64,000 nt of DNA, taken from positions 2,144,001 through 2,208,000 of the forward strand of contig OY762007.1 of the NCBI GenBank assembly GCA_963665115.1, read 5' to 3'. Position numbers and translations under genes: made by a program. This document shows, one piece after another, positions 27,595 to 48,400 of the stretch. This DNA is from an uncultured Rivularia sp. Lineage in GTDB: Bacteria > Cyanobacteriota > Cyanobacteriia > Cyanobacteriales > Nostocaceae. The notes under the pieces are model-generated. The model made no database searches. It was not told the DNA's origin and saw only the letters and a program-made list of their open reading frames with translations. How positions within the stretch are numbered: the first letter of the stretch is position 1; every line of letters starts with the position of its first letter.

Positions 27595-27720
27595 TTATTT
27601 AGGGAGAGGATATTGATTTTAGGGCTTTGTGCAAGGAGAAGCGTAAATTTACTTATAGATTTTCAGTATGAGAATAAAATAATTCACTCTAAAGATAGAG
27701 AATTCCAATCGTGTGACAGT

Positions 27721-29928: not shown

Positions 29929-31626
29929 ATGGTAAATTTAGCTCTAACTCTATTAACTAGTGCAGCAAGATTATCTAAAGCAAATTTTGTACGTAAAACT
30001 CGTAAAACGGCAATTTGTCAAGAGCAATTTTTGTTTTCACTGCTGAAAACTCACCAAGAAACTCAATTTGGAAAAGATTGCGGTTTTGAAGATATCAAAA
30101 CTGTAGAGCAATTTAAAGAAAGAATTCCGATCCTTACTTATAGCGGTTACGAAAAATACGTCGAACGTATTGCACGAGGAGAACAAAATATTCTCACATC
30201 AGATCCAGTCGTTTACTTTAATCAAAGCAGCGGTTCCACGGGTAAACAAAAACTGATCCCGGTAACGAAAAGAGTGCGTAAAGTACGTTCTAGGGTAACT
30301 CAGCAATCTCTGGGATTCATGGTAGATGCTGCAATAAAACGAGGTTTGCCGATTGGTAAAATGTTGCTGACTACCTCCATCCAAATTCGCGATCGCACTA
30401 GTGGAGGTATTGCTTATGGCACTTCCAGCGTAGGGGATTTACGCAATATGGATTTTCTCTACAGACAAGTTTTTGTCCATCCTTACGATGCTTTGAAGCC
30501 AGCAGATAGTTTGGCTCGTAATTATGTTTGCTTATTGTTTGCATTGAGAAATCCTCAAATGCGAGTGATTGGGGCAAATTTCCCGATTTTGGCGCTACAG
30601 TTAGCTGATTATTTAGAGCGTTATGCTTTATATTTAATTCAAGATTTAGAGACTGGAAAAATTGCTTCTTGGTTGAAAATAGAACCTGAAGTGCGTGAAG
30701 CATTAGAAAAGCAGTGGAGTGCAGCACCGCAAAGAGCGGCTGAATTACGCTCTATTTTGCAAAGTGAAGAAACCTTAACTCCTAAGATGGCTTGGAAAAA
30801 TCTTTCATGGATAATTACCGCTCGCGGCGGTACTTCCGACTTCTATTTTGAAAGGTTTAATCAATATTTTGGCGATACTCCAATCTTTGGAGGAATTTAC
30901 GCAGCTTCTGAAGCAACTTTTGGTATTTACGAAGACTTTAACAGCGACGGTACTATTTTAGCTATTGACAGCGGTTTCTTTGAATTTATTCCTTCAGATG
31001 AATGGGAAAAAGAACAGCCGAAAACTGTTTTAGCTCATCAAGTTGAAGTCGGTAAAAACTATCGTATTGTTGTTACCAATTACAGCGGTTTATATCGTTA
31101 CGATATTGGTGATGTAGTTGAAATTGTCGGCTTTTACGAACAAGCTCCCATAATTGTATTTCGCCATCGTATGGGAGGATTGTTATCTGCTACCAGCGAA
31201 AAAACTAATGAATTTCATGCGACTCAAGTAATGCAGCAATTACAAAAAGAGTTTGATTTACCTTTAGCAAGCTACTGCATCACATTATCTAAAAATGAAA
31301 TTCCACCACACTATTTATTAAATATTGAATTACTTCCTAACCATCCTTTGAATAACCCAGAGAAACTTTTAGCTGAATTCGATTTAAAAATGCAGCAAGC
31401 AAACGTATCTTACGAGGAAAAAAGGTGTAATAACATACTTCCTCCACCTCGCCTACGTATTTTAGCCCCTGGAAGTTTTGCTACAGTTCGTCAGCGGCTT
31501 TTACAGAAAGGAATACCCGATTCCCACCTCAAAATTCCTCATATTAACGAAGATAGAAAATTTCTTGAAGGATTAGATATTGAGCAAGAAGTTAAATTAT
31601 CGCAATTAGAACAAATAAGTAAATAA
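29929..31626 (+). CDS. GH3-family acyl-adenylating (acyl-acid amido synthetase-like) protein
   Basis: SSGSTGKQKLIP, YAASE, FFEFIP and GLYRYDIGDVV (GH3 motifs I-III); GAGG RBS. Confidence 0.9.
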   Translation: MVNLALTLLTSAARLSKANFVRKTRKTAICQEQFLFSLLKTHQETQFGKDCGFEDIKTVEQFKERIPILTYSGYEKYVERIARGEQNILTSDPVVYFNQSSGSTGKQKLIPVTKRVRKVRSRVTQQSLGFMVDAAIKRGLPIGKMLLTTSIQIRDRTSGGIAYGTSSVGDLRNMDFLYRQVFVHPYDALKPADSLARNYVCLLFALRNPQMRVIGANFPILALQLADYLERYALYLIQDLETGKIASWLKIEPEVREALEKQWSAAPQRAAELRSILQSEETLTPKMAWKNLSWIITARGGTSDFYFERFNQYFGDTPIFGGIYAASEATFGIYEDFNSDGTILAIDSGFFEFIPSDEWEKEQPKTVLAHQVEVGKNYRIVVTNYSGLYRYDIGDVVEIVGFYEQAPIIVFRHRMGGLLSATSEKTNEFHATQVMQQLQKEFDLPLASYCITLSKNEIPPHYLLNIELLPNHPLNNPEKLLAEFDLKMQQANVSYEEKRCNNILPPPRLRILAPGSFATVRQRLLQKGIPDSHLKIPHINEDRKFLEGLDIEQEVKLSQLEQISK

Positions 31627-31882
31627 TAAGTAAATAATTAAGATCAATTTTTTACAAGACATAAAGATGGGAAATATGTAAATCTATAAGAGATTGGGAA
31701 ATAAGACTAATTGTGATTAGTTATACCAATAACCTATAGATAACAATCGATATTGTTGCTATTGCTATTAAATGCTTTGTATTTTAACGGTATTTTATAC
31801 CAATAGTTTAATTTTCGATTGTTAACTAAGGTAAATAAATCTTTCGATTGCTTTTATTTAACCTTACTCGATCGATCCAGTG

Positions 31883-32857
31883 ATGAAGACACCCTTAGAA
31901 GAGAAACATCTATCCGCATCAGATAACGCGCTGTTAAAAGTTGCAAGAATTGATGGAACTAATTTGACACCAAAAATATTTGCTAATAAATATAGAAAAG
32001 ATGGTGTTCCAGTAATTGTTACTGGTTTACTAGATTCCATGAATAGTTGGGATTTGGATTTTCTACGTGAAAAGTTAGGAAATCAGGAATTTCCAGTTCG
32101 TTTTAACGGATGGGAAAGATATAAAAAAGATAAAAAGGCGTGGAACAATATTGGTAGCGGTGTTGAGTCGCGCACTCTTTCTTTTAATGAATACGCCGAT
32201 TTACTATCATCCAAAGAAGCCCACAAAAATGATATTTATCTTGGCAGATGCGCTTTAAAAAAAACACCACTTGCCGATACACCAGCACTTACAGAAGCTG
32301 ATGCCAAACTTGGTTTAAAAATGCCAGGTACCAGCCCTAACCTGTGGGTATGCCCCGGAAGTCATATAACTCCTTTGCATTACGATCCCCTCGATGGTAC
32401 CTTGATACAGATTCATGGTGAAAAGCGACTTCTACTATTTCCGCCATCTCAAACCTATAATCTTTATCCACTATCATTATTTAATTATTTACGGCATGGT
32501 TTAAAGCTGCGAGCTAATTACTCTCAGGTATATCCTGAAAAACCAGATTTAGAAAAATTTCCGAAATTCGAGAAAGCACTTGCTCATCGTTACGAAGTGA
32601 TTCTCAAACAAGGTGAAATTCTATTTATTCCTGCGGGATGGTGGCATGAAGTAACTTCTTTGGGTGATGGAGTTGTCTGCTCAATTAATCGTTTTTGGCA
32701 CGTTTTACCTTTAACAAGAGCAGCAACTTCCTGGAATAAATGGCGCTTACATCTTGGCGCTTTGATGACTGCACCTCATATTACAAAAACTTGGATAGCT
32801 GCCATATTTAGTAAAGATAGAGAACAAAAGATACGTCATTTAGTGCAAAGACTGTGA
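31883..32857 (+). CDS. JmjC/cupin-8 2-oxoglutarate-Fe(II) hydroxylase
   Basis: NLW...TPLHYD, QIHGEKRLLLFPP and GEILFIPAGWWHEV (HxD...H triad). Confidence 0.9.
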   Translation: MKTPLEEKHLSASDNALLKVARIDGTNLTPKIFANKYRKDGVPVIVTGLLDSMNSWDLDFLREKLGNQEFPVRFNGWERYKKDKKAWNNIGSGVESRTLSFNEYADLLSSKEAHKNDIYLGRCALKKTPLADTPALTEADAKLGLKMPGTSPNLWVCPGSHITPLHYDPLDGTLIQIHGEKRLLLFPPSQTYNLYPLSLFNYLRHGLKLRANYSQVYPEKPDLEKFPKFEKALAHRYEVILKQGEILFIPAGWWHEVTSLGDGVVCSINRFWHVLPLTRAATSWNKWRLHLGALMTAPHITKTWIAAIFSKDREQKIRHLVQRL

Positions 32858-33104
32858 GGATTTTGGATTTGAGATTTTGGATTAAAAATTGTAGAGACGT
32901 AGCACTGCTACGTCTTTATAGGAGTGAGGAGTTAGGAATGAGTAGCAAGTAGCAAGTAGCAAGTAATAAGTAATAAGTAATAAGTAATAAGTATTAAGGA
33001 GTTAAGAGTTTTAAATTACTCTTTATCTCCCCGTCTCGCCATCTCCTCATCTCCCCCTCTCTTTCCCATTCCTTCCAACAATTAAAATTTTATAGATTTC
33101 AAAT

Positions 33105-33866
33105 ATGCAAAACTTATCAAAGATAGTCGTTAAGCAATTAGAAAAATTACTAACCAAAGATGGTTGGTTGGAAAGGTTAATCGCGAAAAACTCTTTGGTT
33201 GGCGATTCTGTTTTTTTTGAAAATGAACAGTTTCCTTGGAGCAAAGATTTAGAAGCTAACTGGATGGTGATTCGCAAAGAATTGGATGGGGTGCTGGAAA
33301 GAGTAGACGAGTTACCTAATTTTCAGGATATTTCTAAGCGTCAATCGCGGATTGCCAACGATAATCGCTGGAAAACCTACTTTTTCTATGCATTCGGGTT
33401 TAAAGCTACTAAAAACTGCGAAAGATGTCCCGAAACTACTAAGTTAATCGAACAAATACCGGGAATGAAAGTAGCATTTTTCTCGATTCTTGCTCCCGGT
33501 AAACATATCCCCAAACATCGCGGTAAGCTCAAGACTATGATTCGCTACCATTTGGGTTTAATTGTTCCACAGCCCAAAGAAAATTGTAAAATTCAAGTAG
33601 CTGATGAAATTAAATATTGGGAAGAAGGTAAAAGTTTAATTTTCGACGATACTTTTTACCATGAAGTTTGGAATGATACGGATGGCTACCGTGTAGTTTT
33701 ATTCTTAGATATTGCTCGCCCTTTAAAATTTCCACTTTCTTTTATTAGTTCGTTAGCTAATAAATTTATTACTGCAACTCCCATAGTTAAAGATGCTAAA
33801 GCTAGTCATAAAGCTTGGGAAGATAAGTTTGAAGCTGAGAATAAATCCAAGGAATTGGTTTCTTAG
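33105..33866 (+). CDS. Aspartyl/asparaginyl beta-hydroxylase-domain (LpxO-like) protein
   Basis: LEANW..IR.E, CPET, FSILAPGKHIPKHRG, RYHLGL and FDDTFYHEVWN...RVVLFLD. Confidence 0.9.
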   Translation: MQNLSKIVVKQLEKLLTKDGWLERLIAKNSLVGDSVFFENEQFPWSKDLEANWMVIRKELDGVLERVDELPNFQDISKRQSRIANDNRWKTYFFYAFGFKATKNCERCPETTKLIEQIPGMKVAFFSILAPGKHIPKHRGKLKTMIRYHLGLIVPQPKENCKIQVADEIKYWEEGKSLIFDDTFYHEVWNDTDGYRVVLFLDIARPLKFPLSFISSLANKFITATPIVKDAKASHKAWEDKFEAENKSKELVS

Positions 33867-33928
33867 TTCGTAGTAGCGCTTTAGCGCCTCTTATCGGATG
33901 CGCTGAAGCGCTACTACGAACCTTTTTT
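33866..33928. terminator. REP-like long hairpin between convergent genes, probable terminator
   Basis: GTTCGTAGTAGCGCTTTAGCGC (33866-33887) pairs with GCGCTGAAGCGCTACTACGAAC (33900-33921), followed by a T run. Confidence 0.7.
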
Positions 33929-35184
33929 CATCTACGAGCAAACCGTTTTCTTTTACGAAATAATCTTGATAAACTAAACCATAAAATTATTCCAACGGTT
34001 GATAATGCTAGTAAAAGTTGCCATAACGGTTTTGGTAGCATTAAATCGTATATTAAATCGTCAAATATATTTTTTTCAATAGCGGCTGTATTGGGATTAA
34101 TAACTCCAACATCTCCGACTATATCCATTTTCGTTTTTAACGCTAAACTTCTTTCTTGAACTTTTTTCAAAAGCTTTTGGCTTCTGTCTCCCTTTAAGAA
34201 AAAAGGCTGTGCTAAATCTTGATTTTCCCCAGCTACTGGCAGGATTTCAATACTATTAATTTGCTTAGAAGTTAAAATAAATTTGGCTAAAAAATTATCT
34301 GTCCAAAACGGATGATTGTGACCGAAAATAAAATTACCCAAGCAGTAAATTATAGGTTTATTTTTATAAATTTCTATCCCTTGCGGAAAATGGGGATGGT
34401 GCCCAAGAATAATGTCAGCACCAGAATCTATGGATTTATGCGCTAAACTGCGAACCCAAAATGGTGGCTTTTTACTGTCATTGAGTCCCCAGTGAAAAGA
34501 TAATATTACATAATCCACTTTCTGTCGTAATTTTTGAATATCTTCTCGAATTAACGATAAATCTGTAGGCATTACACCAGCACGATTCGGCTTTGCATAA
34601 CTCGAATCGCCGGAATTTTCTGACATTGTATAAGCAAGAAAACCCAAACGAATACCATTTTTTTCGCTAATAAATGGCAGTCGTGCTGAAGCCAAATCTT
34701 TACCGCTACCAACAGCAGGTAAATTAACTTGAGATAAACTGGTTAAAGTATCTTTTAATCCTGCAACTCCAGCATCAAGAGCGTGATTGTTAGCAGTAGA
34801 AACCACATCAACGCCAGCCCATTTTAATCCTGCGGCAAAAGCAGTTGGTGCTAAAAAAGCACCTTTTCTCTTAGCAGTATCCGATAAGGGAGCTTCTAAA
34901 TTAACAAAAGCAATATCGGCATCTTCTAGTACAGGCTTTATCTTTTGAAATGGATAACGCGCTTCTTCCTGTTTTGATGCAAAATCTAAATCGTATCGAA
35001 TAATTTGCCGGTGAAATAAACTTTCCTTTGACATCCTCGACCATTCTACATCCCCACCAGCGAGCAAAGTTACCTGAGATTGTGGTTGTGCGATCGCAGT
35101 TTGTGCGGGGAAGCCGAATGCAATTGCTAAATACCCGATAAATATTATTCTCGCGCACGAAGCTATTTTGAAAAGCTTATTCAT
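33928..35184 (-). CDS. CapA/PGA_cap-family metallophosphatase with signal peptide and C-terminal membrane anchor
   Basis: GGD, VNLE, ANNHALD, SFHWG, ILGHHPH and YCLGNFIF. Confidence 0.88.
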   Translation of the reverse strand: MNKLFKIASCARIIFIGYLAIAFGFPAQTAIAQPQSQVTLLAGGDVEWSRMSKESLFHRQIIRYDLDFASKQEEARYPFQKIKPVLEDADIAFVNLEAPLSDTAKRKGAFLAPTAFAAGLKWAGVDVVSTANNHALDAGVAGLKDTLTSLSQVNLPAVGSGKDLASARLPFISEKNGIRLGFLAYTMSENSGDSSYAKPNRAGVMPTDLSLIREDIQKLRQKVDYVILSFHWGLNDSKKPPFWVRSLAHKSIDSGADIILGHHPHFPQGIEIYKNKPIIYCLGNFIFGHNHPFWTDNFLAKFILTSKQINSIEILPVAGENQDLAQPFFLKGDRSQKLLKKVQERSLALKTKMDIVGDVGVINPNTAAIEKNIFDDLIYDLMLPKPLWQLLLALSTVGIILWFSLSRLFRKRKRFARR

Positions 35185-35307
35185 TGGGGTTAGTAGTCCA
35201 CTAAAGGAACTATATAGGGTTGATAATCAGAAATTTTTTCTTCCCCCTCTCCCCCTCTTCCCCTTCCCCGTCTTCACCTGGCAATTTTGGCTTGGTGAGC
35301 AGCTAGT

Positions 35308-36510
35308 TTACTTATCATATTGTGCTGTTTCAAGTGCTTTACCTTGTTGAATGCTCAAAAACGTAGTTATTAAAGCTACGCCTGCTCCTACAAAAAATAC
35401 CCCAATTCCGGCATATTTCCAAACTGGCCCGAGCAAAATAGGCGAGAAAAATTGTCCTAAATTACTAGCCCCCGTTCCGATAGCTAAAACGCTAGAACGT
35501 ACTTCTCTCGGAGTTGATTTAGATAAAGCATCGTACAAATTAGGCATGACAATACCAAATCCCATGCCGAAAATAATTGCTGTGGGCAGAATCAAATAAA
35601 CTTGTTCTACAAAAGGTATAGTAATCAATGTTACTGCCATTAAGATAAAACCCAAGGCAATAGCTTTAGCGCTTCCCACACGCTTTGCTAATTTGCTGGC
35701 ACCTACGGCAGAAATAACGGCCGCACCAATGGCTCGCGATGCCAAAATTGCTCCATTAAGAACCGTATCGGCTCCGATTGCTTTTTTAAAATGTAGGGGA
35801 GCGTAGACAATAACTACATAAAAGATTGCAGATGACAAGGCTAAAGCTGTAAATAAGGTTAAAGTACTACTAGCTCTCAAGCTTTCAATTAATTTATCTT
35901 TTTGACCTAAATTGATTGATGAAGAACCTTGACGTTTGCGCTTTGGTAATAAAAAGTGGGCAAGTAACGCTGCTGGTAAAGCCAAACCATACATAAAAAA
36001 GGTAAATCGCCAATTGTATTTACCAAGTAAACCACCAAGAAGAGGAAAAATAATGCTGGCGATCGCCAATGCACTGGTTGTGTAACCCAAAACGCGGGTT
36101 CGCTTCTCTCCTTCATACATACTGCTGAGAATGCCGATACTCGCAGCTGCAATTCCCCCGCTGGCAGCCCCTAACAATGCTCGCGATATTAATAAAGGCG
36201 TAAAGCTGTTTGCAAAAGCCCCAGCAGTACCGAAAATTGCGTAGCAAATAAGTGATGGAATTAGCACTTTTACCTTTCCAATACGGTCGGCTAATATACC
36301 AAATATTGGACTAAACAAGAAGATTGTTAGGCAGTGCATACTAACCAGAATTCCCGACCACCGGGGATCGATTAAAAGTTGATCTTTAACCTCCGGCATC
36401 ACTGGTGCTACTAAGCTTCCCGTCATGGTGGTTAAGCTGCCACAAGCAAGTAGTACTAATAATATAGGAATTTGTTTGCGAGTTTCTTGAGTTAGAAACG
36501 AGGTAGACAT
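35308..36510 (-). CDS. MFS transporter
   Basis: About 12 TM helices; motif A GILADRIGKVKV. Confidence 0.92.
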   Translation of the reverse strand: MSTSFLTQETRKQIPILLVLLACGSLTTMTGSLVAPVMPEVKDQLLIDPRWSGILVSMHCLTIFLFSPIFGILADRIGKVKVLIPSLICYAIFGTAGAFANSFTPLLISRALLGAASGGIAAASIGILSSMYEGEKRTRVLGYTTSALAIASIIFPLLGGLLGKYNWRFTFFMYGLALPAALLAHFLLPKRKRQGSSSINLGQKDKLIESLRASSTLTLFTALALSSAIFYVVIVYAPLHFKKAIGADTVLNGAILASRAIGAAVISAVGASKLAKRVGSAKAIALGFILMAVTLITIPFVEQVYLILPTAIIFGMGFGIVMPNLYDALSKSTPREVRSSVLAIGTGASNLGQFFSPILLGPVWKYAGIGVFFVGAGVALITTFLSIQQGKALETAQYDK

Positions 36511-36700
36511 ATAAATAAAAAAATCCTTAATTTTGTTTGGTATCGAAAAGGTATTAAAACTAACTTCTAAAGATTTCCCCGCTTTCGGTATTCTTTTTTG
36601 ATTAATGGTTATTTGTTTAAAAAGAAGTGAATTAACGATATTAGTGCATTACAAGTAGAATAAACTAATTTATTAACGATGAATAGCTAAATTTGATCGC

Positions 36701-36732
36701 AAAATCCCCTCCGATAAAATTGTTGGAGGGGA
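36701..36732 (-). terminator. Hairpin after the CFA-like gene
   Basis: TCCCCTCCGATA / TGTTGGAGGGGA stem, followed by T4 on the minus strand. Confidence 0.5.
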
Positions 36733-36779
36733 AATAGTACTTTATATTTTGAATCGTTTTAAGCTTGAAGTGTTCCGCT

Positions 36780-38105
<1,326 letters not shown>

Positions 38106-38227
38106 TTAAAAAGAAGTGAATAAAATATAATTTACTTTGTTCCTTATCTAAGTGTTTGATAGGTTTGTAGCAAGGACTTTAATCCTCGGATTTAGGGCTA
38201 AAGCCCCTACTACGAACCTTTTTATCA

Positions 38228-39061
38228 TTACTTCTGCGGAAGCTTGACGTTGGTTGCTAATCCGAGGAATTGCAATAATCTAATCGTCATCCAAGTCATG
38301 TCAATTTCCCACCATTTCAATCCATGACGTGCGGAATATTGAAAAGCATGATGATTATTATGCCAACCTTCACCAAAAGTCAGCAGAGCAACCCACCAAC
38401 AGTTGGTAGAGCGATCGCCTGAATCTTGATTGCGATAGCCGATGGTATGACAAGCACTGTTGACGAACATAGTAGAGTGAATGCCGACAAACAAGCGTAC
38501 AAATGTTCCCCAAACTACAAAAGGCCATCCACCAAGCAAATATAAAATAACTCCTAACGCGACTTGCAGTTCAATATAATAACGATGGCAGAAACGATAA
38601 AATGCATCGTCGGCAATATCTTTTGTCATGCGTGGAAGTTCGGGTTTAGCAGGCACCGTATGCATTAACCAGCCGATGTGACTCCACCAGAAACCTTCAT
38701 TGGGTGTATGAGGATCTCCTTTTTCGTCGGAATGTAAATGATGTACTCGGTGATATCCAACCCAGCCCATCACACCTCCTTGAAGTGCCAAAGTCCCGCA
38801 CAAAATCAAGAAATACTCCAGCCATTTGGGAACTTGTAAGCTGCGATGGGTTGCTAAACGATGAAATCCGAAAGCAATTCCCAAACCAATAGTCATCCAG
38901 TGCAATAACACTGCGACTCCTACAGCAGCCCAGCTAAAGTTTTGGGGTAAAAATGCTAATAAGACTGCTAGATGAAGAATGACAGTAAAAATAATCACCT
39001 TCAATCGGGGAGAAGGTGGATTTAATTGAGGTAAAGAAACTGGAGATAAATTGGTAGTCAT
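38228..39061 (-). CDS. Delta-9-type (DesC/Ole1-like) fatty acid desaturase; probable start 39061
   Basis: His boxes HRLATH, HRVHH and GEGWHNNHH. Confidence 0.92.
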   Translation of the reverse strand: MTTNLSPVSLPQLNPPSPRLKVIIFTVILHLAVLLAFLPQNFSWAAVGVAVLLHWMTIGLGIAFGFHRLATHRSLQVPKWLEYFLILCGTLALQGGVMGWVGYHRVHHLHSDEKGDPHTPNEGFWWSHIGWLMHTVPAKPELPRMTKDIADDAFYRFCHRYYIELQVALGVILYLLGGWPFVVWGTFVRLFVGIHSTMFVNSACHTIGYRNQDSGDRSTNCWWVALLTFGEGWHNNHHAFQYSARHGLKWWEIDMTWMTIRLLQFLGLATNVKLPQK

Positions 39062-39282
39062 GAATTTTTTTGCCCTACACCTACTTAAAGATAAAAGATA
39101 ATTTTTTGATACATTTAATACTGTGTTCCGTTCATACAGCGCTTTTCGTTTTAGTGCAATAACTTCGGGCAACCTCACCCCCTTCCCCTCTCCTTATTAA
39201 GCGGGAGGCGGGGTGAGGTTAAGTAAATTTCTGTACATACTCTAATGTCGGAACTCGGCATTAAGTAATTCTCAGATATGCT

Positions 39283-40878
39283 CTAAATAACCAAAGATTC
39301 GTTCATCTCAACTTGCTGAGACTTTTCTTTGATATTCGCTGCACGATAATCGGCTATTTGCCCTTCAATTTCATTCTGGACAACTTGACGGTAATCAATA
39401 TGATGCTCTAAAAGAGCGCACATAGTTACGTAAGAGATTAATACACTAGGATTATGCTTAAGTATCCCGAAAAGTTGACTCCAGAATTGGAATCGCGTAT
39501 TTCGTTTAATACCCTGTCGCCAAACAATAATTAATAGTGCTTTTAATTCTATTAACTCTGGCATTTTAAACTCTTTCTTGTAAGGGCGAGGCTGCATTTC
39601 CAGGTAATGGCGATAAACCCTTCCCAAGTATTTCTTTGGTTCGTATAATTCCCAGAAACACTTGACATATTCGGAGGCTAATTCTTCTATGGGACGAGTT
39701 GGAATAAAGTTAGTTAAAGAGGTTGTTTGATTGCCCGTATTGCCTTTTTGGTCAATTTCTAACAAACGCCCTTCTTTTTCTAATCGATGCCATAATGCTG
39801 TATTTGGTAGAGCTTGCAGCAAACCAAACATTGCATTCGGAATTGCAGTCGTCTCCACAAAATCAATAATGCGATCGCCTGCTCCTGCTTTTTCTCCGTC
39901 GAAACCGAGAATAAAGCCAGCCATGACTCGCAAGCCTTTACGATTAATTTTCTGAACGGCTTCTACTAAAGAATCGCGAGTGTTTTGATGCTTTTTCGTT
40001 AATGACAAACTATCCGTATCGGGTGTCTCAATTCCCAAAAATACAGAGCTAAAGTTAGCAGCAATCATTAAATCGAGCAATTCATCGTCTTGTGCTAAAT
40101 CTACTGAAGCTTCTGTTTGCAAGCTAAAGGGATAACCCCGCTCTACCATCCAAGGAATCAGTTCTTTGAGTAGAAGCTTGACATTACGTTTATTGCCGAT
40201 GAAATTATCATCTACCATAAACACCGAATGCCGCCAGCCTAAATCATACAGTGTTTGTAATTCCCCCAGCAGTTGTGCTGGAGACTTTGTACGCGGTTTG
40301 CGTCCGTAAAGTACGATAATGTCGCAAAATTCACACTGATAAGGACAACCACGGGAAAACTGCACCGACATATCGCTGTAAGCGCTTATTTCCAGTAAAT
40401 CGTATCTTGGTATCGGCGTAGTAGTAATATCGGGCTTTTCACCATTTGAGCGGAATATCCCCGAAGTTTCCCCTCTTTGAAGTGCTTCTACAAATAGAGG
40501 TAAAGTTATTTCTCCTTCATCTAGAACCAAAAAATCTACCCCTGCGGCTTGGGCTTCTTGGGGTACGGAAGTTACGTAAGGACCTCCCACCGCGACTAAT
40601 TTGTTACGCCGTTTTGCTTCGCGGATTAAGTGCAGCATATCTGGTTTCTGGACAATCATTCCGGAAACAACGATCAATTCTGCCCATTCCCAATCAGCTT
40701 CGGTTTCAGGAGCAATATTACGGTCAACTAGTCGAAAATCCCAATCTTGAGGTAGAATAGCCGCTACCGTAATCATCCCCAGAGGAGGAACAGTTACTTT
40801 ACATCCAATTAGTTCTATACTTTTGTCGAAAGACCAAAAAGATTTTGGAAACTGAGGATATAGCAGTAAAACTCGCAT
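39283..40878 (-). CDS. B12-binding radical SAM protein (DUF4070, HpnP-like class B methylase family)
   Basis: PPLG and GGPYVT (B12-binding domain), SRGCPYQCEFC, DDNFIGN and FLGIETP. Confidence 0.9.
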   Translation of the reverse strand: MRVLLLYPQFPKSFWSFDKSIELIGCKVTVPPLGMITVAAILPQDWDFRLVDRNIAPETEADWEWAELIVVSGMIVQKPDMLHLIREAKRRNKLVAVGGPYVTSVPQEAQAAGVDFLVLDEGEITLPLFVEALQRGETSGIFRSNGEKPDITTTPIPRYDLLEISAYSDMSVQFSRGCPYQCEFCDIIVLYGRKPRTKSPAQLLGELQTLYDLGWRHSVFMVDDNFIGNKRNVKLLLKELIPWMVERGYPFSLQTEASVDLAQDDELLDLMIAANFSSVFLGIETPDTDSLSLTKKHQNTRDSLVEAVQKINRKGLRVMAGFILGFDGEKAGAGDRIIDFVETTAIPNAMFGLLQALPNTALWHRLEKEGRLLEIDQKGNTGNQTTSLTNFIPTRPIEELASEYVKCFWELYEPKKYLGRVYRHYLEMQPRPYKKEFKMPELIELKALLIIVWRQGIKRNTRFQFWSQLFGILKHNPSVLISYVTMCALLEHHIDYRQVVQNEIEGQIADYRAANIKEKSQQVEMNESLVI

Positions 40879-41931
40879 TTATATAGCAATTTAGAAAAAC
40901 ATTGCCGAAGTGGTTTTGATGGCTGAAATCCGAGAATTGAAGATTTTAATTATCTATATTTTTTACTTTTTTACTATTGTAGTTGTGGATACACTTTTTT
41001 TTGAATTGCGGCACAAACCATAAAAAAATACGTTTATTAGATCGAGAAAACCTTCGTCTAAAATCTTTTGTTTTTGCTAAGTTGATCGATCGTTAATATG
41101 AGGGATTTGTAAATTACTGCGACCTAACTTCTTCTGTATTTGGCAATAAGGTCGCTTTTGGGTAATGATAAGTAAAACAAAAACTGCATCAAGACGCAAG
41201 GAAAAAAATATAAATTTATTGTTATTACAAGATTATTGATGGATTTGTTCCCAGAGATGTTTCCTTAAATTTAATATTACAGTTAGAAACTACTTAACTT
41301 TTGATTGTGTATCAATGTATCTCAGCTTCTCAGTATTGAAACGGTTTTTTTAATAATCTGAGTTTAAGCCTTTTATATTGTGCTTAGAAGTTAAAGTTTA
41401 ATTTATACGATACAATCGGCTATGAAATTTTACCGGGTAAGAGCTAATAAATACATAGACCACATTTATTTATCGAGTTTTATAAAGAAGGCTCATGCAC
41501 AAAAAATCCATATATTTGATGTGCGAGCATAAGATTTATATATCAGAAAAGCAAACAATTTATGGTTTTAGATATTTCAGTAATTAAACGTATCATAAAA
41601 TATAATTATGTTGTAAGCAACACTTTTATCTTGTCAGTGTAAACAATATACAACTAAATAAACAAGAACATAAAAGTGTCATAAGGCACTCGACATTTGC
41701 GAAAAATCGGATAAAACTATGGAAGAAAAGTGACATTTGGGCGATTGAAAACTAAAATGCCTAAGATAATGGTTTTTCGTAGATTTTTGGTTTGTTTTGC
41801 CATAAGTTCTTGCTTAATTACTGAGAACTTTGTAAATTTCTAATAAGATTGTCGGCAAGTCTTCTAGAATGATACGCTAACTTTCTGTCGTAATTGCTCA
41901 TATAGTTAATTACTTATTAGGGAGTATCGTA

Positions 41932-43056
41932 ATGGAAATAGCTCCAATGCTAAGGAGCCAAACCGTTCAAAATCAAGTGCGCGAAGTCGGTATTAATCCA
42001 AATTATTGGTATCCCGCAACTTGGGCTTCGGAACTAAAACCAGGTGATGTAATACCCGTAATGATTTGGAATTCGGCGATCGCACTTTACCGTTCCCAGG
42101 ATGGTCAAGTTCACGCTATGGAAGATGCCTGCCCGCATAAAGGTATAGCTTTACACAAAGGTAAAGTAGCTGGAGAAAACCTTACCTGTCCTTATCACGG
42201 TTGGGAGTTTAACGGTGATGGGGTGTGTACCAACATTCCTTATTTTCCTAAAGACCAAAAATTGCCCTGTGCTTCTTCACGTAGCTATGCGGTGCGAGAA
42301 AAATTTAATTTGATCTGGATTTTTCCGGGAGCGATTGAAGATTCAGAAACAGTCGAATTTCCTTCGATTCCAGAATATGATGACCCAAACTGGCTAGCTA
42401 TTCCCATACCGGGAGAGTTTAAAGCTCATTTCTCCATCTGTAACGAAAACACGATGGACGTGTTCCACGGCTATTTACATGAAAACTTGCAGGGCTGGTT
42501 CGATCCAGAACTAATAAGTTTGAAAGCCTCCGATGCATCGGTATTTGCTATGGGTCGAGTATCTTATCAAGGTTGGATGACCAAGTTTTTCGGATTCAGC
42601 GAACAAGGGAACGAAGTTACTACTCGTACTGTCACAATTAAATATAACTATCCCCATTACCATAGTTCTTTGGAAGGAATGTCTTCCCTTTATTTGATGC
42701 GTCAACCAGTGGGGGCACAATTAACAAAATCTTTTTCCCTATTGTTTATCAAAATTCGCCTTCCTCAATGGTTTGTAAAACCGTTACAAAAACCGATAAC
42801 AAAAATCATTTGGCGGTTTATCTTGAAAAGTTTTCTCGATCAAGACACCGAGATGATTGAAAGCGAACAACAAACCTACCTAGCTAATCCCCAAAGACGT
42901 TATGTAGAAATTAATCCAGCAATCATTGCCCTACAACGGGTAATTGTCGGTCAATATGAAAAATTTGTGCAACAATCTAAAAAACTATCCAATGGCAATA
43001 ATGGTAATCACGCATCTTCGGTTGGTGAAATTAAATCAAATTTAACTTCTACTTAG
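41932..43056 (+). CDS. Rieske non-heme iron oxygenase alpha subunit
   Basis: CPH...CPYHGW Rieske motif; ENTMDVFHGYLH and DQD iron ligands; GGAG RBS. Confidence 0.92.
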   Translation: MEIAPMLRSQTVQNQVREVGINPNYWYPATWASELKPGDVIPVMIWNSAIALYRSQDGQVHAMEDACPHKGIALHKGKVAGENLTCPYHGWEFNGDGVCTNIPYFPKDQKLPCASSRSYAVREKFNLIWIFPGAIEDSETVEFPSIPEYDDPNWLAIPIPGEFKAHFSICNENTMDVFHGYLHENLQGWFDPELISLKASDASVFAMGRVSYQGWMTKFFGFSEQGNEVTTRTVTIKYNYPHYHSSLEGMSSLYLMRQPVGAQLTKSFSLLFIKIRLPQWFVKPLQKPITKIIWRFILKSFLDQDTEMIESEQQTYLANPQRRYVEINPAIIALQRVIVGQYEKFVQQSKKLSNGNNGNHASSVGEIKSNLTST

Positions 43057-43176
43057 GAAGGTGGTACATCATCTGATATAACAGATTGGTTAATTGTACA
43101 AAGTAAAAAAGTAAATTTTCAACTGCAAACATATATTAAAAGCCCATAGGCAAATATTAGGTGAGAGGAGTTATTT

Positions 43177-44463
43177 GTGGAAGTTGTTGAAGAGTATATG
43201 CAGGGACTCTATCAAAGTGGTCTCTATCCAGATAAGTTAATTTGCCATGAAAAACATGGAAATGTAGTCGAAGTTGAAGATCCTGCCGATGGCAAGCGAT
43301 ATAAACTATTGACATTCTGCACTAACGATGTATTAGGGTTAGTTCAGTCAGAAGAAGTAAGACAAGCGGCGATTGATGCAATTGTGAAATACGGTACTTC
43401 TAATAGTTCCTGTTCCGTGTTAAGCGGCAGAATTGAGTTGCATCGTCAGTTGGAGCAAGAAATTTCGGCTTTCAAACATTTGCCCCATACTCATCTATTC
43501 CTCAATGCTTGGATGGCAATGCAAGCATTAATAGATGGTTTTTGCCACTTAGCGATTAATCTTCCTGGCTTTCGGAACACCAGAGAAACCTTAATTTTGA
43601 CTGATGTTCTCAACCACGGCTGTATAGTTTCTGCCGTTACCAATGCCAGCAATCGTTCTGGAAAGATGTTTAGTCATAGTCCTGATGTTCGCGTGAAAGC
43701 TTACCGTCATTGCGACGTAAATGACTTAGCGCGAAAATTACGACGCTATGCGAAGCCAAATGACCGAATTTTGGTAGTTTCCGATGCTGTCTTCTCAATG
43801 GATGGGGATATCGCTCCATTGCCAGAGATGCTGGACGTTTTAGAAAACTATCCAGGTAGCGTCATTGTGATGGATGAAGCTCACGCCAGCGGTGCGCTCG
43901 GTCCTAAAGGCGGCGGTATCTACGACCATTTTGGAATTACGCCCCAGCAAGTACTCGATCGGGGAATGGTGCCATTAATTATGACCACCTTCTCTAAATT
44001 TGCAGCTTCCGCAGGTGCAGCAATCAGTTCTCATATGCCAGAAATGATTGACTTGTTGGACGTTTCCCCAACCTCCATCGGTACAATTTCTCTTCCACCT
44101 CCAACAACAGCAGCAGCGTTAGAAAGTATTCGTCAGGTAAGACAAAATCCTGAATTAGTCGAAACCTTGCAAGCCAACGCGAATTACTTGCGATCGCGTT
44201 TAATCGAACATGATTTTGCAGCGATTGGCGAAACTAACGTCATACCAGTACTAATGCCACCCGAACTCAATCCCAAGCAGTTCACCCGTCATTTGATGGA
44301 ACACCACGGTATTTGGGTATCTGCGATTTGGTTTATTGCTAAACCTCGCTTAAGAATTACCGCAAACGCGCTTCATACTAAAGAAGAAATGGATAATTTG
44401 GTTGAAGCAATGGTACAAACGCGAGAGCTTTTATATAAACCTGCGACTGTAGCTACTGCTTAG
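43177..44463 (+). CDS. PLP-dependent alpha-oxoamine synthase, putative serine palmitoyltransferase
   Basis: NDVLGL, D..NH, SDAVFSMDGD, DEAHASG, TFSK (PLP lysine) and RLRIT (BioF/KBL/SPT fold). GTG start with a GAGGAG RBS. The SPT call rests on gene context. Confidence 0.8.
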   Translation: MEVVEEYMQGLYQSGLYPDKLICHEKHGNVVEVEDPADGKRYKLLTFCTNDVLGLVQSEEVRQAAIDAIVKYGTSNSSCSVLSGRIELHRQLEQEISAFKHLPHTHLFLNAWMAMQALIDGFCHLAINLPGFRNTRETLILTDVLNHGCIVSAVTNASNRSGKMFSHSPDVRVKAYRHCDVNDLARKLRRYAKPNDRILVVSDAVFSMDGDIAPLPEMLDVLENYPGSVIVMDEAHASGALGPKGGGIYDHFGITPQQVLDRGMVPLIMTTFSKFAASAGAAISSHMPEMIDLLDVSPTSIGTISLPPPTTAAALESIRQVRQNPELVETLQANANYLRSRLIEHDFAAIGETNVIPVLMPPELNPKQFTRHLMEHHGIWVSAIWFIAKPRLRITANALHTKEEMDNLVEAMVQTRELLYKPATVATA

Positions 44464-44538
44464 AAATTGAAAAGGGTGGGCATCCCTGCCCCACAATAGT
44501 TGTAAATCTTCTTGATTTGTAAGAATTGTCGAGATTTT

Positions 44539-44571
44539 AGAAACCCGGTTTTTTCAAAAAACCGGGTTTCT
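44539..44571. repeat. Palindrome AGAAACCCGGTTTTTTCAAAAAACCGGGTTTCT (near-identical copy at ~48799-48830)
   Basis: Self-complementary, and repeated in this window. Confidence 0.8.
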
Positions 44572-44740
44572 GAATTTTTTGATGGTGCGTTATGCTGCGC
44601 GATGACACACCCTACGTTCTCAAAAGCGCACTTTTTGCTATTTCCTGTTCCCTGTGCCAAACAATTAAAATAAACCAATAAAAATATCATAATTAAAAAT
44701 TTAACTGTAACTTTTTTACATTAAACGCAAAACTTTATTA

Positions 44741-45892
44741 GTGAATATGGTTACTCAAACTCAAAATTTTCAGGTATCACCTGTAACTACAGACGCACAG
44801 AGGGAAATGTTCCTCGATGTGCCTGTTAAAGTATATAAAAATAATCCTAATTGGGTTCCACCAATTCGCAGCAGCATTGCCAAACAATTAGCATCAAACG
44901 AAAATCCTTTTTTGGAATATGGAGAATTTCAGCAGTTTATTGCTATTTCTCAAAAGAATAACGAACCTTTAGGAAGAATTGTCGCTATAGTAAATCGCCG
45001 ATTAATTGAAAGCGAAGGTAAAAATGTCGGTCTTTTTGGTTATTTTGAATGCCTAGAAGACTTTGAGGTTGCTAATAGTCTATTAGAAACAGCTTCCAAG
45101 TGGTTGCGCGATAAAGGGATGAATTTTGTCAGGGGACCAATAAATTTATCTACTCACAATAGCTGTTTATTTTTAGTAGATAAATTTGATCAACCACCAA
45201 TCATGATGACACCTTATAATCCGCCTTATTATCCTGAATTTATGGAAAAGGCTGGTTATTACAAAGGAAATGATGCATATGTTTTCAATTTTCCCTTAGA
45301 TACTGCTTTAGACCCTAAATTTGAAAAAGCTTATCGAATTGCTTGTAAATCTGGAGTAACATTTCGCCCACTCCGCACTAAAGGTGAAGGTTTTGAACAA
45401 GATTGTCGAGATATATATAACCTTGTAGGTAAAGTTTTTACTAAAAATTATAGTTATAGCTACCGTACTGTAGAAGAATTTCTCAGTCAGGCTAAAGATT
45501 TGCAAGATATGGCTGACCCAGATGTATTTCCCATAGCCGAACATGACGGTAAAATGATTGGTGTTTGGATGGGAATACCAGACTATAATATTGTTTTAAA
45601 ACATATTAACGGTAAACTAAATTGGTTAGGAATTATCAAATTCCTTTGGTATCGCCGTCAAATTGACCAAGGGATAGTACCCCTTATTGCTTGTTTGCCT
45701 GAGTATCGCCGCAAAATGGTGCCTTTAGCTCTTGTTTACTTAGGTATGCAAGGAGGAATCCGAAAAGGAAAGCCCTACAAAAGAGCAGAACTCGGTTGGG
45801 TATGGGAAGATAACTCAGCTTCCCGCAAAATGATTGAAGCAGCAGGCGGCAAAATCTACAAGACTTACCGAATTTACGAGAAAGCGTTATGA
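44741..45892 (+). CDS. GNAT-fold protein resembling bacterial ceramide synthase (bCerS/YghO-like)
   Basis: PNWVPP, GRI, GLFGYFEC, RGPINLS, MTPYNPPYY and ELGWVWEDN..SRKMIE...YRIYEK. Lies downstream of the SPT-like gene. Confidence 0.75.
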   Translation: MNMVTQTQNFQVSPVTTDAQREMFLDVPVKVYKNNPNWVPPIRSSIAKQLASNENPFLEYGEFQQFIAISQKNNEPLGRIVAIVNRRLIESEGKNVGLFGYFECLEDFEVANSLLETASKWLRDKGMNFVRGPINLSTHNSCLFLVDKFDQPPIMMTPYNPPYYPEFMEKAGYYKGNDAYVFNFPLDTALDPKFEKAYRIACKSGVTFRPLRTKGEGFEQDCRDIYNLVGKVFTKNYSYSYRTVEEFLSQAKDLQDMADPDVFPIAEHDGKMIGVWMGIPDYNIVLKHINGKLNWLGIIKFLWYRRQIDQGIVPLIACLPEYRRKMVPLALVYLGMQGGIRKGKPYKRAELGWVWEDNSASRKMIEAAGGKIYKTYRIYEKAL

Positions 45893-46860
45893 AAGCTTTA
45901 GTTACAGGTGCCAATGGTTTCACGGGTTCGCACTTAGTAAAAGCGCTACAGCAGCGCGGCGATTCGGTTATTGGACTAGTGCGAAAATCCAGCGATTTAA
46001 CAAGATTAGAAAATACAGGAATACATTTAGTTACGGGAGACATTACCGATCGCAACGCCTTACGTCAAGCGATGCAGGATGTTGACATGGTATTCCATAC
46101 AGCAGCTTTTGTGGAGTTAGGTTTAGTCGATGCCGCAAAAATGGAACGGGTAAACGTCGAAGGAACTCAAGCCGTTTTAGAAGTTGCCAAGGAAATGGGA
46201 ATTTTAAAAATGGTTTATTGCAGCACCATCGGCATTTATGGCGATACCAAAGGTGAAATCATCGATGAAACCTTTGAAAGAACTCAAGAAAACTTCTCCT
46301 CTGCTTACGACAGCACCAAATATGAAGCACAGCAGCTAGTTGACAACTACGCCGTCATCGGTTTTCCCGTAGTTAGCGTTATGCCTTCAGGTATTTTTGG
46401 CCCAGACGATCCGCATTTTGGCCCCGTATTTAAACTATTTTTGCAAGGTAAATTAAAACTCTGGGTAGCTGGCGATCGCATGACAGGGATAGTTCATGTG
46501 GACGATCTTGTAAATGCCATGATATTGGCAGCAGAAAAAGGCGAAAGAGGAGAACATTACATAATTTCTGCTGGTGAAGTTCCCTCCCGCGAAATGTTTG
46601 AAATTATCAGCGAACAGACAGGCATTTCCACACCTACGGAAGTTCCACAACCGATAGTTAGAATTGCAGGTAATATTCTTGACCCGATAGGAAGCTTATT
46701 CTCATGGAATCCACCAATAGGTAAAGAGCGCTTACATTACTTGTACGACCGCTGCGTGCGAGTCGATGCAAAGAAAGCGCGTGAAAAATTAGGTTGGCAA
46801 CCCCGTTCTGTGTCCCAAACATTACAAGAAATTGCTACACACTTACAATCTCAAATTTAA
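45889..46860 (+). CDS. Extended SDR / NAD-dependent epimerase-dehydratase, putative 3-keto (oxidised ceramide) reductase
   Basis: TGANGFTG, ST and YDSTK (YxxxK). ATGA overlap with the upstream stop codon. Confidence 0.85.
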   Translation: MKALVTGANGFTGSHLVKALQQRGDSVIGLVRKSSDLTRLENTGIHLVTGDITDRNALRQAMQDVDMVFHTAAFVELGLVDAAKMERVNVEGTQAVLEVAKEMGILKMVYCSTIGIYGDTKGEIIDETFERTQENFSSAYDSTKYEAQQLVDNYAVIGFPVVSVMPSGIFGPDDPHFGPVFKLFLQGKLKLWVAGDRMTGIVHVDDLVNAMILAAEKGERGEHYIISAGEVPSREMFEIISEQTGISTPTEVPQPIVRIAGNILDPIGSLFSWNPPIGKERLHYLYDRCVRVDAKKAREKLGWQPRSVSQTLQEIATHLQSQI

Positions 46861-47067
46861 AGATAAAACAAAAATAAGGTTGTTGGTAGTTGCGCTTCAG
46901 CGCCTCCGAGAAGAAGCGCTAAAGCGCAACTACGAACCTGCTAAGTCCTCATTATTGCAACCTATTAAAGATTTTTAACGTCCTCAACAAAGTAGTGTTG
47001 TACGCAATTATCATGTCGATAAATTGTTACGATAAATTACAAGACAGATATTTCTTCAAAAGCTTAT

Positions 47068-47577
47068 ATGAATTCAGTGTTATTTAGTGCTTCGACAGCA
47101 ATAATTTGTTTCCTAATTGCCTTCACACTGGCGAGTTTGGTGGAATACTGGCTGCATCGTTTGATGCACGTTAATCGTAAAATTGGTGAACGTCATCGCG
47201 ATCATCATCGTCGCAACGAAGGACAAGGTGTAGTCTGGGAGTTTCGCGATTATGTTGTTGGTAGCTTAGTCGTCTTGCCATTAATGTTTTTCTTTTCTTG
47301 GAGTGCTGGTTTGGGTTGGTTGCTCGGAAGTTTGAGCTATGCGGCTTTTTCAGCATATGCTCATCAATTACAGCATGAAAATCCAACCAAATGCTTCTGG
47401 ATGAAAATGCCAGTTCATTACGTCCATCATAAATACGGGATGTGGGAGCATAACTTTGGTTTAGCTGTAGACTGGTGGGACCATGTTTTCGGTACTTACA
47501 AACCTGTTGAAGAATGGATCGGTGAAAAAGAAATTGCGCTATCCGAACGCGGTTATTTACAGTTGAAGTGGTGGTAG
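47068..47577 (+). CDS. Fatty acid hydroxylase / sterol desaturase family protein
   Basis: His boxes HRLMH, HRDHH, HQLQH and HYVHH; NFG...WWDHVFGTY. Confidence 0.9.
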   Translation: MNSVLFSASTAIICFLIAFTLASLVEYWLHRLMHVNRKIGERHRDHHRRNEGQGVVWEFRDYVVGSLVVLPLMFFFSWSAGLGWLLGSLSYAAFSAYAHQLQHENPTKCFWMKMPVHYVHHKYGMWEHNFGLAVDWWDHVFGTYKPVEEWIGEKEIALSERGYLQLKWW

Positions 47578-48203: not shown

Positions 48204-48400
48204 TAAACATTTATCATCAAAAATAAAATCTATCTTAAGTACAGTAACCAAACTATAACTTCTGTTAGAGGGATGATTAGATCATTTATAGGTAATCTTG
48301 ATTTGTATTCAGTACAACTAATCTTGCTTTGAAATAGATTGGATTTTTAGATGTGCTGAATCAGTTAAAACTATTGGAAATGAGCTAACAAAGTTTCGTG

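Follow-up and report, generated by a model that had tools for sequence, protein, structure and literature searches.

A modular gene block in Rivularia as a candidate pathway to a ceramide-like membrane lipid

A block of 15 genes in the genome of an uncultured Rivularia sp. is the most complete form of a gene set that is scattered over a minority of cyanobacteria. We tentatively propose, at a little under an even chance, that it encodes a modular pathway: a four-gene core would build a ceramide-like N-acyl amino-alcohol lipid, a GH3 enzyme would add a swappable amino-acid head, and hydroxyl, methyl or cyclopropyl groups would come from optional enzymes. The product is likely an undescribed ceramide-like membrane lipid; the literature on bCerS may list cyanobacterial homologs. 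Judged by its genes, the route appears to be a variant of the bacterial ceramide pathway, and the accessory network around it is what seems new. The proposal builds on observed gene content, homology, linkage, nested co-occurrence and allele swapping, from which we infer each reaction and substrate and that all enzymes would act on one molecule. Positions below are those of the window, the whole 64,000-nucleotide stretch of DNA analysed.

26827..27594, minus strand: DevA-type ABC exporter ATPase (Pfam/NCBIfam); outside the range of the initial annotation, part of the block, in 19/19 genus clusters
27721..28980, minus strand: FtsX/MacB (DevC-type) ABC permease (Pfam/NCBIfam), divergent from GH3
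29929..31626, plus strand: GH3 acyl-acid amido synthetase, allele A, near-core (three Pfam GH3 matches; motifs)
31880..32857, plus strand: JmjC/cupin (Cupin_8) Fe-2OG oxygenase, optional (Pfam)
33105..33866, plus strand: AspH-family Fe-2OG hydroxylase (Asp_Arg_Hydrox), optional, travelling with GH3 (Pfam/NCBIfam)
33928..35184, minus strand: CapA/PGA_cap calcineurin-fold protein, MslH-like, tied to GH3 allele A (Pfam/NCBIfam)
35308..36510, minus strand: MFS transporter, frequent partner (Pfam)
36780..38084, minus strand: cyclopropane-fatty-acid-synthase family methyltransferase (CMAS; CFA), optional, paired with the desaturase (Pfam/NCBIfam)
38228..39178, minus strand: membrane fatty-acid desaturase (FA_desaturase), optional (Pfam, motifs)
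39283..40878, minus strand: B12-binding radical SAM protein with DUF4070 (HpnP-like), cluster-specific subfamily, optional (Pfam/NCBIfam)
41932..43056, plus strand: Rieske oxygenase, frequent partner (Pfam/NCBIfam)
43177..44463, plus strand: divergent alpha-oxoamine synthase (AOS), core (NCBIfam, alignments, model)
44741..45892, plus strand: YghO/bCerS-like N-acyltransferase (GNAT), core (full-length YghO homology)
45889..46860, plus strand: extended SDR (epimerase/SDR), CerR-like, core (best genome match of E. coli ECD_02852)
47068..47577, plus strand: small di-iron fatty-acid hydroxylase (FA_hydroxylase; FAH), core (Pfam, motifs)

The initial annotation had described 13 contiguous genes at 29929..47577, and an ORF check recovered 13/13 at the same coordinates and on the same strands, with no internal stops. 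Its family labels agree with Pfam and NCBIfam, or, for the GNAT, with full-length YghO homology; it had also correctly counted five O2-dependent oxidising enzymes and two methyl-transfer types. Catalytic motifs are found in the block's enzymes. The annotation had seen neither PKS nor NRPS, and an ORF and Pfam profile search likewise found no such genes within 24-54 kb of the window. Its boundary was too short: devA and devC (26827-28980) both adjoin GH3 in 19/19 genus genomes, so the block stretches left to include them. Neighbouring genes of the block are spaced by -4 to 1053 bp. The region is tiled by contigs from three sequencing runs, possibly of the same sample as the assembly, with almost no differences, and a gap of ~60 bases in this tiling lies inside an intergenic repeat. 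A recent horizontal island was rejected, as GC and GC3 are near the genome level and the position is fixed within the genus. Scans of the block gave no excess of promoters (62 versus 55.8 in shuffled background) or terminators (20 versus 15.7), and no convincing match to regulator motifs. Relatives are represented by four metatranscriptome runs (at most two samples), whose contigs cover all three strand-defined arms into which the annotation had divided the genes; DNA carry-over is possible, and assembled contigs do not bear on co-expression.

The AOS of the core keeps all four catalytic residues (N50, H147, K274 and R393; Asn, His, Lys and Arg), and its structure model, with a pLDDT of 95, reaches a Foldseek TM of about 0.8 to Spt and lies at equal structural distance from Spt, Kbl, ALAS and BioF. 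The sequence scores below every curated Spt cut-off (172/640, 160/500 and 112/670 bits), and E. coli Spt is 34% identical to the host's BioF-like gene versus 26% to the cluster AOS. A diagnostic site reported to hold Ala in Spt and Lys in SulA (PMC9304779) is Ile304 in 33/33 cyanobacterial rows, the position being read from alignments; Ile304 also aligns with the Lys of 28eh. Because of this Ile, we consider the cluster AOS, as judged from its sequence, to be neither canonical Spt nor SulA. It falls in an isolated clade (the AOS and GH3 trees were both built with FastTree), and a search of metagenomes for members of this clade outside the cyanobacteria yielded, among the matches listed, 2 cyanobacterial-type and 78 generic AOS loci.

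An amino-lipid backbone had been suggested in the initial annotation, and the YghO/bCerS homolog supports one of ceramide type. This GNAT aligns with E. coli YghO over its full length (27%, 383 columns, E 2e-45) and is the sole, reciprocal YghO match in the host genome; the protein itself has no Pfam or NCBIfam match, one ortholog matches PF00583, and a single-sequence fold (pLDDT 37) gave no usable model. The SDR is the best host-genome match of E. coli ECD_02852 (CerR), at 24% and E 5e-12, a family-level similarity far weaker than the CerR filter of 1e-30 in PMC11334938. The only PDB match of FAH is the yeast ceramide hydroxylase Scs7, and it is weak (E 0.004). The same AOS-GNAT-SDR gene order is found on a Rubrobacter plasmid, and plasmid matches carry the annotation yghO.

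A clustered AOS, YghO-family N-acyltransferase and extended SDR also make up the Spt-bCerS-CerR ceramide pathway of Caulobacter and of E. coli BL21 (ECD_02850-02854), for which PMC9386255 names ECD_02850, ECD_02852 and ECD_02854. In contrast to that pathway, the block has an AOS from an isolated clade that lacks the Spt Ala; it contains no AcpR/AasR, LptFG or head-group kinase/glycosyltransferase, and it adds near-obligate GH3 and FA-hydroxylase partners together with a large plug-in set. The rhodobacterial-type ceramide pathway has dedicated AcpR and AasR beside spt, neither of which is in the block. The capnine/sulfonolipid pathway (SulA/CapB) makes a ceramide-like backbone from a non-serine amino acid, and cysteate synthase does occur in some AOS-positive clusters; there, however, it flanks GH3 and not AOS, and our AOS has no Lys281 equivalent. 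Capnine synthesis in the Rivularia genome was rejected, given Ile304 in place of Lys and the absence of a cysteate synthase (best match 87 bits, cut-off 325).

How tightly these genes belong together can be read from 261 cyanobacterial-phylum genomes, 22 of them AOS-positive and 239 AOS-negative, with an 80-genome subset (21 and 59, respectively) for Rieske, radical SAM, AspH and CFA. Related genomes are not independent in these counts, and 134/239 AOS-negative genomes belong to seven families, probably mostly small-genome lineages. GNAT orthologs (at least 53%) occur in 22/22 AOS-positive and 0/239 AOS-negative genomes. The SDR was found in 21/21 other AOS-positive genomes and in none of five AOS-negative ones checked, and FAH (at least 67%) in 21/22 AOS-positive genomes, with 50-55% homologs in 5/239 AOS-negative ones. 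GH3 orthologs (at least 49%) are present in 19/22 and 0/239, three AOS-positive genomes being without one. Accessory genes are sparser: Rieske (at least 54%) in 15/21 versus 0/59, JmjC in 6/22 versus 0/239, the cluster radical SAM subfamily in 7/21 at 72-77% with none of the 59 above 68%, AspH (at least 54%) in 3/21, always adjoining GH3, versus 0/59, and CFA in 3/21, unlinked to AOS there, versus 0/59; with so few orthologs, the AspH and CFA signals have a rough p of 0.08. The MFS gene is in 19/19 genus clusters and 21/57 loci outside the Rivularia group, and no ortholog was found in five AOS-negative genomes checked. In the distant genomes G080, G242, G159, L067 and L082, DevA is a neighbour of core genes, and the DevC-type permease has only C-terminal 36-45% matches in five AOS-negative genomes.

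Accessory orthologs thus turned up only where the core is present, whereas the core also occurs without accessories, and close orthologs from all three arms are confined to AOS-positive genomes, in line with the co-occurrence that the initial annotation had led us to look for. In distant cyanobacteria, genes from all three arms sit together in a changed order; because they reshuffle together across orders, their proximity is not a matter of chance. The refuting condition named in the initial annotation, arms that are unlinked in related genomes, was therefore not borne out. The arms are nevertheless not the evolutionary units: the complete set of 13 genes is found in only 3/19 genus relatives, and the units are an obligate core and optional plug-ins.

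In the pathway that we propose, AOS would join an amino acid and an acyl thioester into an amino-ketone; the YghO/bCerS-like GNAT would N-acylate this, the SDR would reduce its ketone, and the di-iron hydroxylase would then hydroxylate an acyl chain, probably at C2. GH3 would next adenylate a putative carboxylate of the backbone, which either an acidic amino acid or a diacid as acyl donor would supply, and couple an amino acid to it. Chains or head could be further modified by JmjC, AspH, Rieske, radical SAM and the desaturase-CFA pair; CapA, acting outside the cytoplasm, may invert the stereocentre of the head, and export would fall to MFS/DevAC. In favour of the scheme, distant clusters place an Mpo1-like 2-hydroxy-fatty-acid dioxygenase next to FAH. 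Rieske as a general source of GH3's acid was ruled out, since six GH3-positive genomes are without Rieske.

The role of GH3 is central to this scheme. The protein has the adenylation motifs, and the genus carries two alleles whose distribution does not follow the AOS tree; they diverge most over residues 100-199 (16/46 fixed differences, p 0.004). Where it lies away from AOS, GH3 still adjoins FAH, MFS, radical SAM, JmjC or AspH in 8/14 of the GH3-centred or radical SAM-plus-GH3 loci inspected. A cysteate synthase above cut-off adjoins GH3 both in G248, where a PLP decarboxylase accompanies it, and in G250, where it comes with an amino-acid racemase and next to FAH-Mpo1-amidohydrolase genes; in G159 a 40% cysteate synthase homolog lies upstream of GH3. 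Such neighbours point to a swappable amino-acid head. Taken further, the scheme would amount to a new lipid class that combines ceramide logic with a GH3 ligase, namely an N-acyl amino-alcohol acid with an exchangeable, possibly D-configured head (cysteate or taurine in some lineages) and cassette swapping without PKS/NRPS, an extension that we regard as possible yet doubtful.

GH3 could instead belong to a second lipid, with AOS-GNAT-SDR-FAH (and perhaps Rieske and radical SAM) making a ceramide-type product and GH3-AspH-JmjC-CapA starting from free fatty acid to make an N-acyl amino acid lipid of its own; the two would have exporters and a role in the envelope in common. The model for this is the OlsH/OlsI ornithine-lipid pathway of Singulisphaera with its OlsC/OlsE tailoring, which likewise combines a GH3 amide synthetase with AspH-family and di-iron hydroxylases, and in which OlsH is reported to convert free fatty acid and ATP to N-acyl ornithine (PMC12493201). 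The block's AspH is closest to OlsC (263 bits, cut-off 450), described as an ornithine-lipid 2-hydroxylase (PMC12971839); GH3 is often far from AOS, multi-copy in some genomes and in G034 placed behind a PlsC-like acyltransferase. Yet an independent lipid should sometimes occur alone, whereas block-type GH3 is confined to AOS-positive genomes; the OlsH match is weak (100 bits against a cut-off of 620), the block has no OlsI-type or other alpha/beta-hydrolase, and GH3 neighbours elsewhere point to cysteate rather than ornithine. We therefore think two lipids unlikely. Still less probable is a single pathway in which GH3 provides a second N-acylation or an acyl-activation step, passing a free (hydroxy) fatty acid to an amine of the AOS product or standing in for AasR/AcpR. 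Neither acpR nor aasR is in the block, where GH3 is the only adenylating enzyme, and elsewhere FAH-Mpo1-amidohydrolase genes suggest amide turnover. However, the amino-acid supply and racemase genes beside GH3 point to a small amino-acid nucleophile, and every AOS-positive genome already has the GNAT.

Not all accessory genes are equally bound to the set, and CFA, desaturase and CapA are only weakly tied to it. CFA and desaturase adjoin AOS in 0/57 loci outside the Rivularia group; CFA is present in 14/19 genus genomes, the desaturase (66% identical to a paralog in the same genome) is lost together with it, the pair recurs in G054, and many members of the genus have lost CapA too. None of the 260 other genomes sampled carries a close ortholog of CapA, and its occurrence in 9/9 allele-A versus 0/10 allele-B genus genomes comes down to two or three events plus physical linkage. 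These three may be passengers whose substrates are bulk glycerolipids or cell-wall polymers, beside a core that makes the amino-lipid, which we hold to be a minority possibility, albeit one compatible with the modular pathway. Against it, CFA matches occur in 6/21 AOS-positive and 0/59 AOS-negative genomes, and CapA also accompanies a sister clade of GH3 found beyond the genus (L034, L035 and L037). CapA has hydrophobic segments at its N- and C-terminus and keeps equivalents of MslH His88/Asp91 and His295, residues common to metallophosphoesterase relatives too; its MslH-type match scores 96/700 bits.

Desaturase and radical SAM both have widespread paralogs, also in the host, and in a quick tree the cluster radical SAM subfamily is set apart from generic copies by a branch supported at 98. 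This subfamily shares the B12-radical SAM-DUF4070 architecture with HpnP and HpnP-like proteins, the latter described as uncharacterised (PMC10697835), but is a separate subfamily found only in AOS-positive genomes. A triterpenoid-tailoring cluster, with an SdmA/SdmB-like demethylase, an HpnP-like methylase and a sterol-desaturase-family hydroxylase, comes to mind as the best NCBIfam matches of Rieske and SDR are SdmA and HpnA/SdmB, and a Calothrix strain is reported with SdmAB in a sterol cluster (PMC10202945). All scores, however, are far below cut-off (SdmA 228 bits against 600) and AOS, GNAT and GH3 would be left unexplained, which makes this reading highly improbable. Hopanoid or sterol tailoring was rejected, as a search of the 99.9% complete host genome found no squalene/oxidosqualene cyclase domain (PF13243) and so no triterpene cyclase.

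Finally, the gene set can be placed in the context of cyanobacterial sphingolipids, for which, as a 2022 paper puts it, no genetic basis had been reported until then (PMC8895605). The negative result for Nostoc punctiforme in that paper fits the patchiness of AOS, as this strain has only a BioF-type AOS. A field sample of Moorena producens yielded a cerebroside (PMC6272925), and the M. producens genome P0098 carries AOS; the Moorea cerebroside requires a glucosyltransferase, missing from the block, and came from non-axenic field material. The gene set points to the strains worth analysing and the enzymes worth assaying, and it places three orphan families in a setting open to testing: the GH3s of cyanobacteria, the HpnP-like radical SAM subfamily and the isolated AOS clade. 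AOS is present in 27/27 genus genomes, and the core is kept there and in the diatom symbiont Richelia intracellularis (L042), which suggests an important part in the envelope or in symbiosis and the possible use of the lipid as a biomarker.

The stretch at 29929..47577 of the Rivularia window holds a real, conserved and modular set of genes predicted to make an amino-lipid by a new version of the bacterial ceramide pathway, one set apart by a near-obligate GH3 amide synthetase. The 13 genes named there in the initial annotation were recovered as open reading frames at the same coordinates, domain searches agreed with the families assigned to them, and motif inspection found their catalytic motifs kept. 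The block has unremarkable GC content and is reproduced by contigs from three sequencing runs. The source genome (8.69 Mb, 99.9% complete) is that of a heterocystous cyanobacterium whose closest named AOS relatives are Rivularia-type records. A transporter borders the block:

26827-28980, divergent from GH3: DevA/DevC-type ABC exporter, found in 19/19 genus genomes read

Because the exporter adjoins GH3 in all of these genomes and its genes recur adjoining core genes in distant ones, we extend the block to 15 genes. Neither the cluster nor a cyanobacterial bCerS was described in the literature searched; cyanobacterial homologs may be listed in the bCerS-defining paper or in the supplement of PMC11334938.

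The core consists of an oxoamine synthase (AOS), an N-acyltransferase (GNAT), an SDR and a small di-iron hydroxylase (FAH). The predicted AOS structure has the oxoamine synthase fold (pLDDT 95) and lies about equally near Spt, ThAOS, Kbl, ALAS and BioF in structure comparison. AOS retains all four residues listed as conserved in Spt and SulA in PMC9304779, and alignments place Ile304 at the site by which that paper tells Spt (Ala) from SulA (Lys). Given fold, conserved residues and Ile304, AOS would act much as the enzyme that opens ceramide synthesis, though as an Spt it is at most putative. Clade-specific changes surround the PLP lysine and phosphate loop, and in a search of 1.8 billion representatives only about eight near-full-length AOS clusters (37-62% identity) outscored the generic AOS background. 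GNAT had no match in the domain/family library; it aligns over its full length with E. coli BL21 YghO (27%, E 2e-45), whose sole match in the source genome it is. PMC9386255 gives YghO (ECD_02850) as the ortholog of a Caulobacter acyltransferase required for dihydroceramide. SDR is the best match of ECD_02852 in the source genome, yet at just 24%. The only structural match of FAH, a weak one, is the yeast ceramide hydroxylase Scs7. In distant clusters the genes after FAH encode an Mpo1-like 2-hydroxy-fatty-acid dioxygenase and then an amidohydrolase, together a conserved trio:

L116:9285-10742 and L084:2657-3052: FAH-Mpo1-amidohydrolase trio
L172, L175, L186, L200 and L245: further loci with the trio

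The amidohydrolase of the trio is 81-86% identical across orders, often with rSAM as the next gene, and the trio is possibly a branch for amide-lipid turnover or decarboxylation; a genome search found neither the dioxygenase nor the amidohydrolase in the source genome. Two symbionts of diatoms, Richelia intracellularis and Calothrix rhizosoleniae (L042, L040, L036), keep Rieske-AOS-GNAT-SDR. On a Rubrobacter radiotolerans plasmid (L243:6701-12293) AOS, GNAT and SDR also stand in this order, and the next gene is of the LTA-synthase family.

In a single draw of 261 genomes, the source included, AOS orthologs occur in 22, spread over many families, with only 1/35 among same-family genomes outside the genus. 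GNAT orthologs (at least 53%) are found in exactly these 22, with 27-35% homologs in nine others, and FAH (at least 67%) in 21/22, with 50-55% homologs in five AOS-negative genomes. GH3 (at least 49%) is present in 19/22 and in 0/239 AOS-negative genomes, five of which have 26-30% homologs; one of the three AOS-positive genomes lacking the ortholog has a distant family match. JmjC follows at 6/22 and 0/239. An SDR ortholog was found in 21/21 other AOS-positive genomes and 0/5 AOS-negative genomes tested. A chosen 80-genome subset comprised 21 AOS-positive and 59 AOS-negative genomes (27 of comparable kinship, 32 small-genome or distant lineages). All 59 lack Rieske (at least 54%; 15/21 AOS-positive), the rSAM subfamily (at least 72%; 7/21, generic paralogs in 45/80), CFA (6/21, three at 68-74%) and AspH (at least 54%; 3/21, three shorter 45-50% matches in AOS-negative genomes). 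No close CapA ortholog was found in the other 260 genomes. Rough Fisher tests gave a strong association with AOS for GNAT, FAH, GH3 and Rieske and a moderate one for JmjC and rSAM; for the AspH and CFA orthologs significance was not reached. The tests overstate association, since kin are not independent, and the identity thresholds were taken from gaps in the results.

Within the genus, AOS occurs in 27/27 genomes, and devA, devC, GH3, AspH, MFS, Rieske and AOS each in all 19 read fully. GNAT-SDR-FAH lies inside the fetched stretch in 15/19, and the other four have GNAT-SDR DNA matches on separate contigs. CFA and desaturase are present in 14/19, never one without the other, JmjC in 13/19, rSAM in 12/19 and CapA in 9/19. 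The proposed unity of the 13-gene cluster thus stands in part: core and partners are widely kept, but all 13 genes occur together in just 3/19 genomes. In some of the 19, matches are split, perhaps by assembly frameshifts. Outside the Rivularia group, 57 AOS loci, part of the 80 best out of 295 and in many cases short, differ widely in gene order; their AOS neighbours are Rieske (35), GNAT (35), SDR (22), MFS (21), FAH (20), GH3 (12), rSAM (9), AspH (5), JmjC (3) and CapA (3), with CFA and desaturase at 0. Away from AOS, GH3 often adjoins FAH, MFS, rSAM, JmjC or AspH. The block thus shows a plug-in gene set at its largest extent.

Among the tailoring enzymes, CFA has a parallel in the fungal sphingolipid C9-methyltransferase, a CFA-family enzyme that works after a desaturase. 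Of this, PMC3230030 bears out just the 9-methyl base. The generic HpnP-like rSAM paralog is frameshift-split in the assembly (L130:10069-11653; G000:C1:3016068-3017595), so the cluster rSAM may be the only intact HpnP-like copy. Triterpenoid tailoring fails as a reading of the block because a genome search found no cyclase.

Enzymes of the GH3 family use ATP to couple an acid with an amine. For the bacterial OlsH, PMC12493201 gives N-acyl ornithine as the product. In the block, GH3 would act downstream, on the product of the core, because in the genomes sampled it was never found without the core, whereas the core occurs without GH3. This role would require a postulated carboxylate on the backbone; ATP-dependent taurine transfer onto the ornithine-lipid carboxyl, reported in PMC12971839, is a precedent. 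GH3 could instead be a second N-acylating or acyl-activating enzyme. That one connected pathway is at work, under either reading, we consider fairly probable; the specific model of a GH3-ligated amino-acid head group on the core lipid is tentative at best.

For this head-group model, other genomes offer candidate amines. GH3 is flanked by cysteate synthase and a PLP decarboxylase in genome G248 (L184:7979-12982); in G250 (L182:5899-13766), the series cysteate synthase, amino-acid racemase, uncharacterised ORF, GH3 lies next to FAH-Mpo1-amidohydrolase. The cassette with the PLP decarboxylase also has DedA, and in G159 (L196:9099-12126) a 40% cysteate synthase homolog precedes one GH3. The three cassettes are candidates for pathway variants that make lipids with D-cysteate or taurine. 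Cysteate would more plausibly be the substrate of GH3 than of AOS, since a genome search found no cysteate synthase in the source genome and AOS is 68-97% identical across it and the cassette genomes. Two GH3 alleles share one slot in the genus, A in the window and nine further genomes, B in ten; G001 and G014 carry B, though their AOS groups with that of A carriers. Fixed differences cluster at residues 100-199, the region where plant GH3s have substrate-pocket helices. CapA always accompanies allele A and never B, which linkage alone could explain; CapA also retains the His/Asp residues seen in MslH, a peptide epimerase, perhaps a loose parallel to the G250 racemase. The source genome has a second devC (87%) and GH3 (55%) pair (L131:8257-11478; G000:C1 ~4.283 Mb) embedded in an island of RND/MerR efflux and two-component genes. 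In the tree this GH3 groups with the tandem second GH3 of the cluster in genome G004, which suggests that devC-GH3 is a mobile piece.

Immediately after the FAH gene lies a CRISPR array (47811-48208) of six 37-bp repeats, the last degenerate, with spacers of ~34-35 bp; no cas gene adjoins it, and the three cas1 genes found by genome search are far off. Transposase-like insertions separate AOS and GNAT in relatives' clusters. Short palindromic repeats occupy intergenic gaps of the block at 33867-33927, 44536-44574 and 46880-46940 and, judged by contig depth, are multi-copy in the genome.
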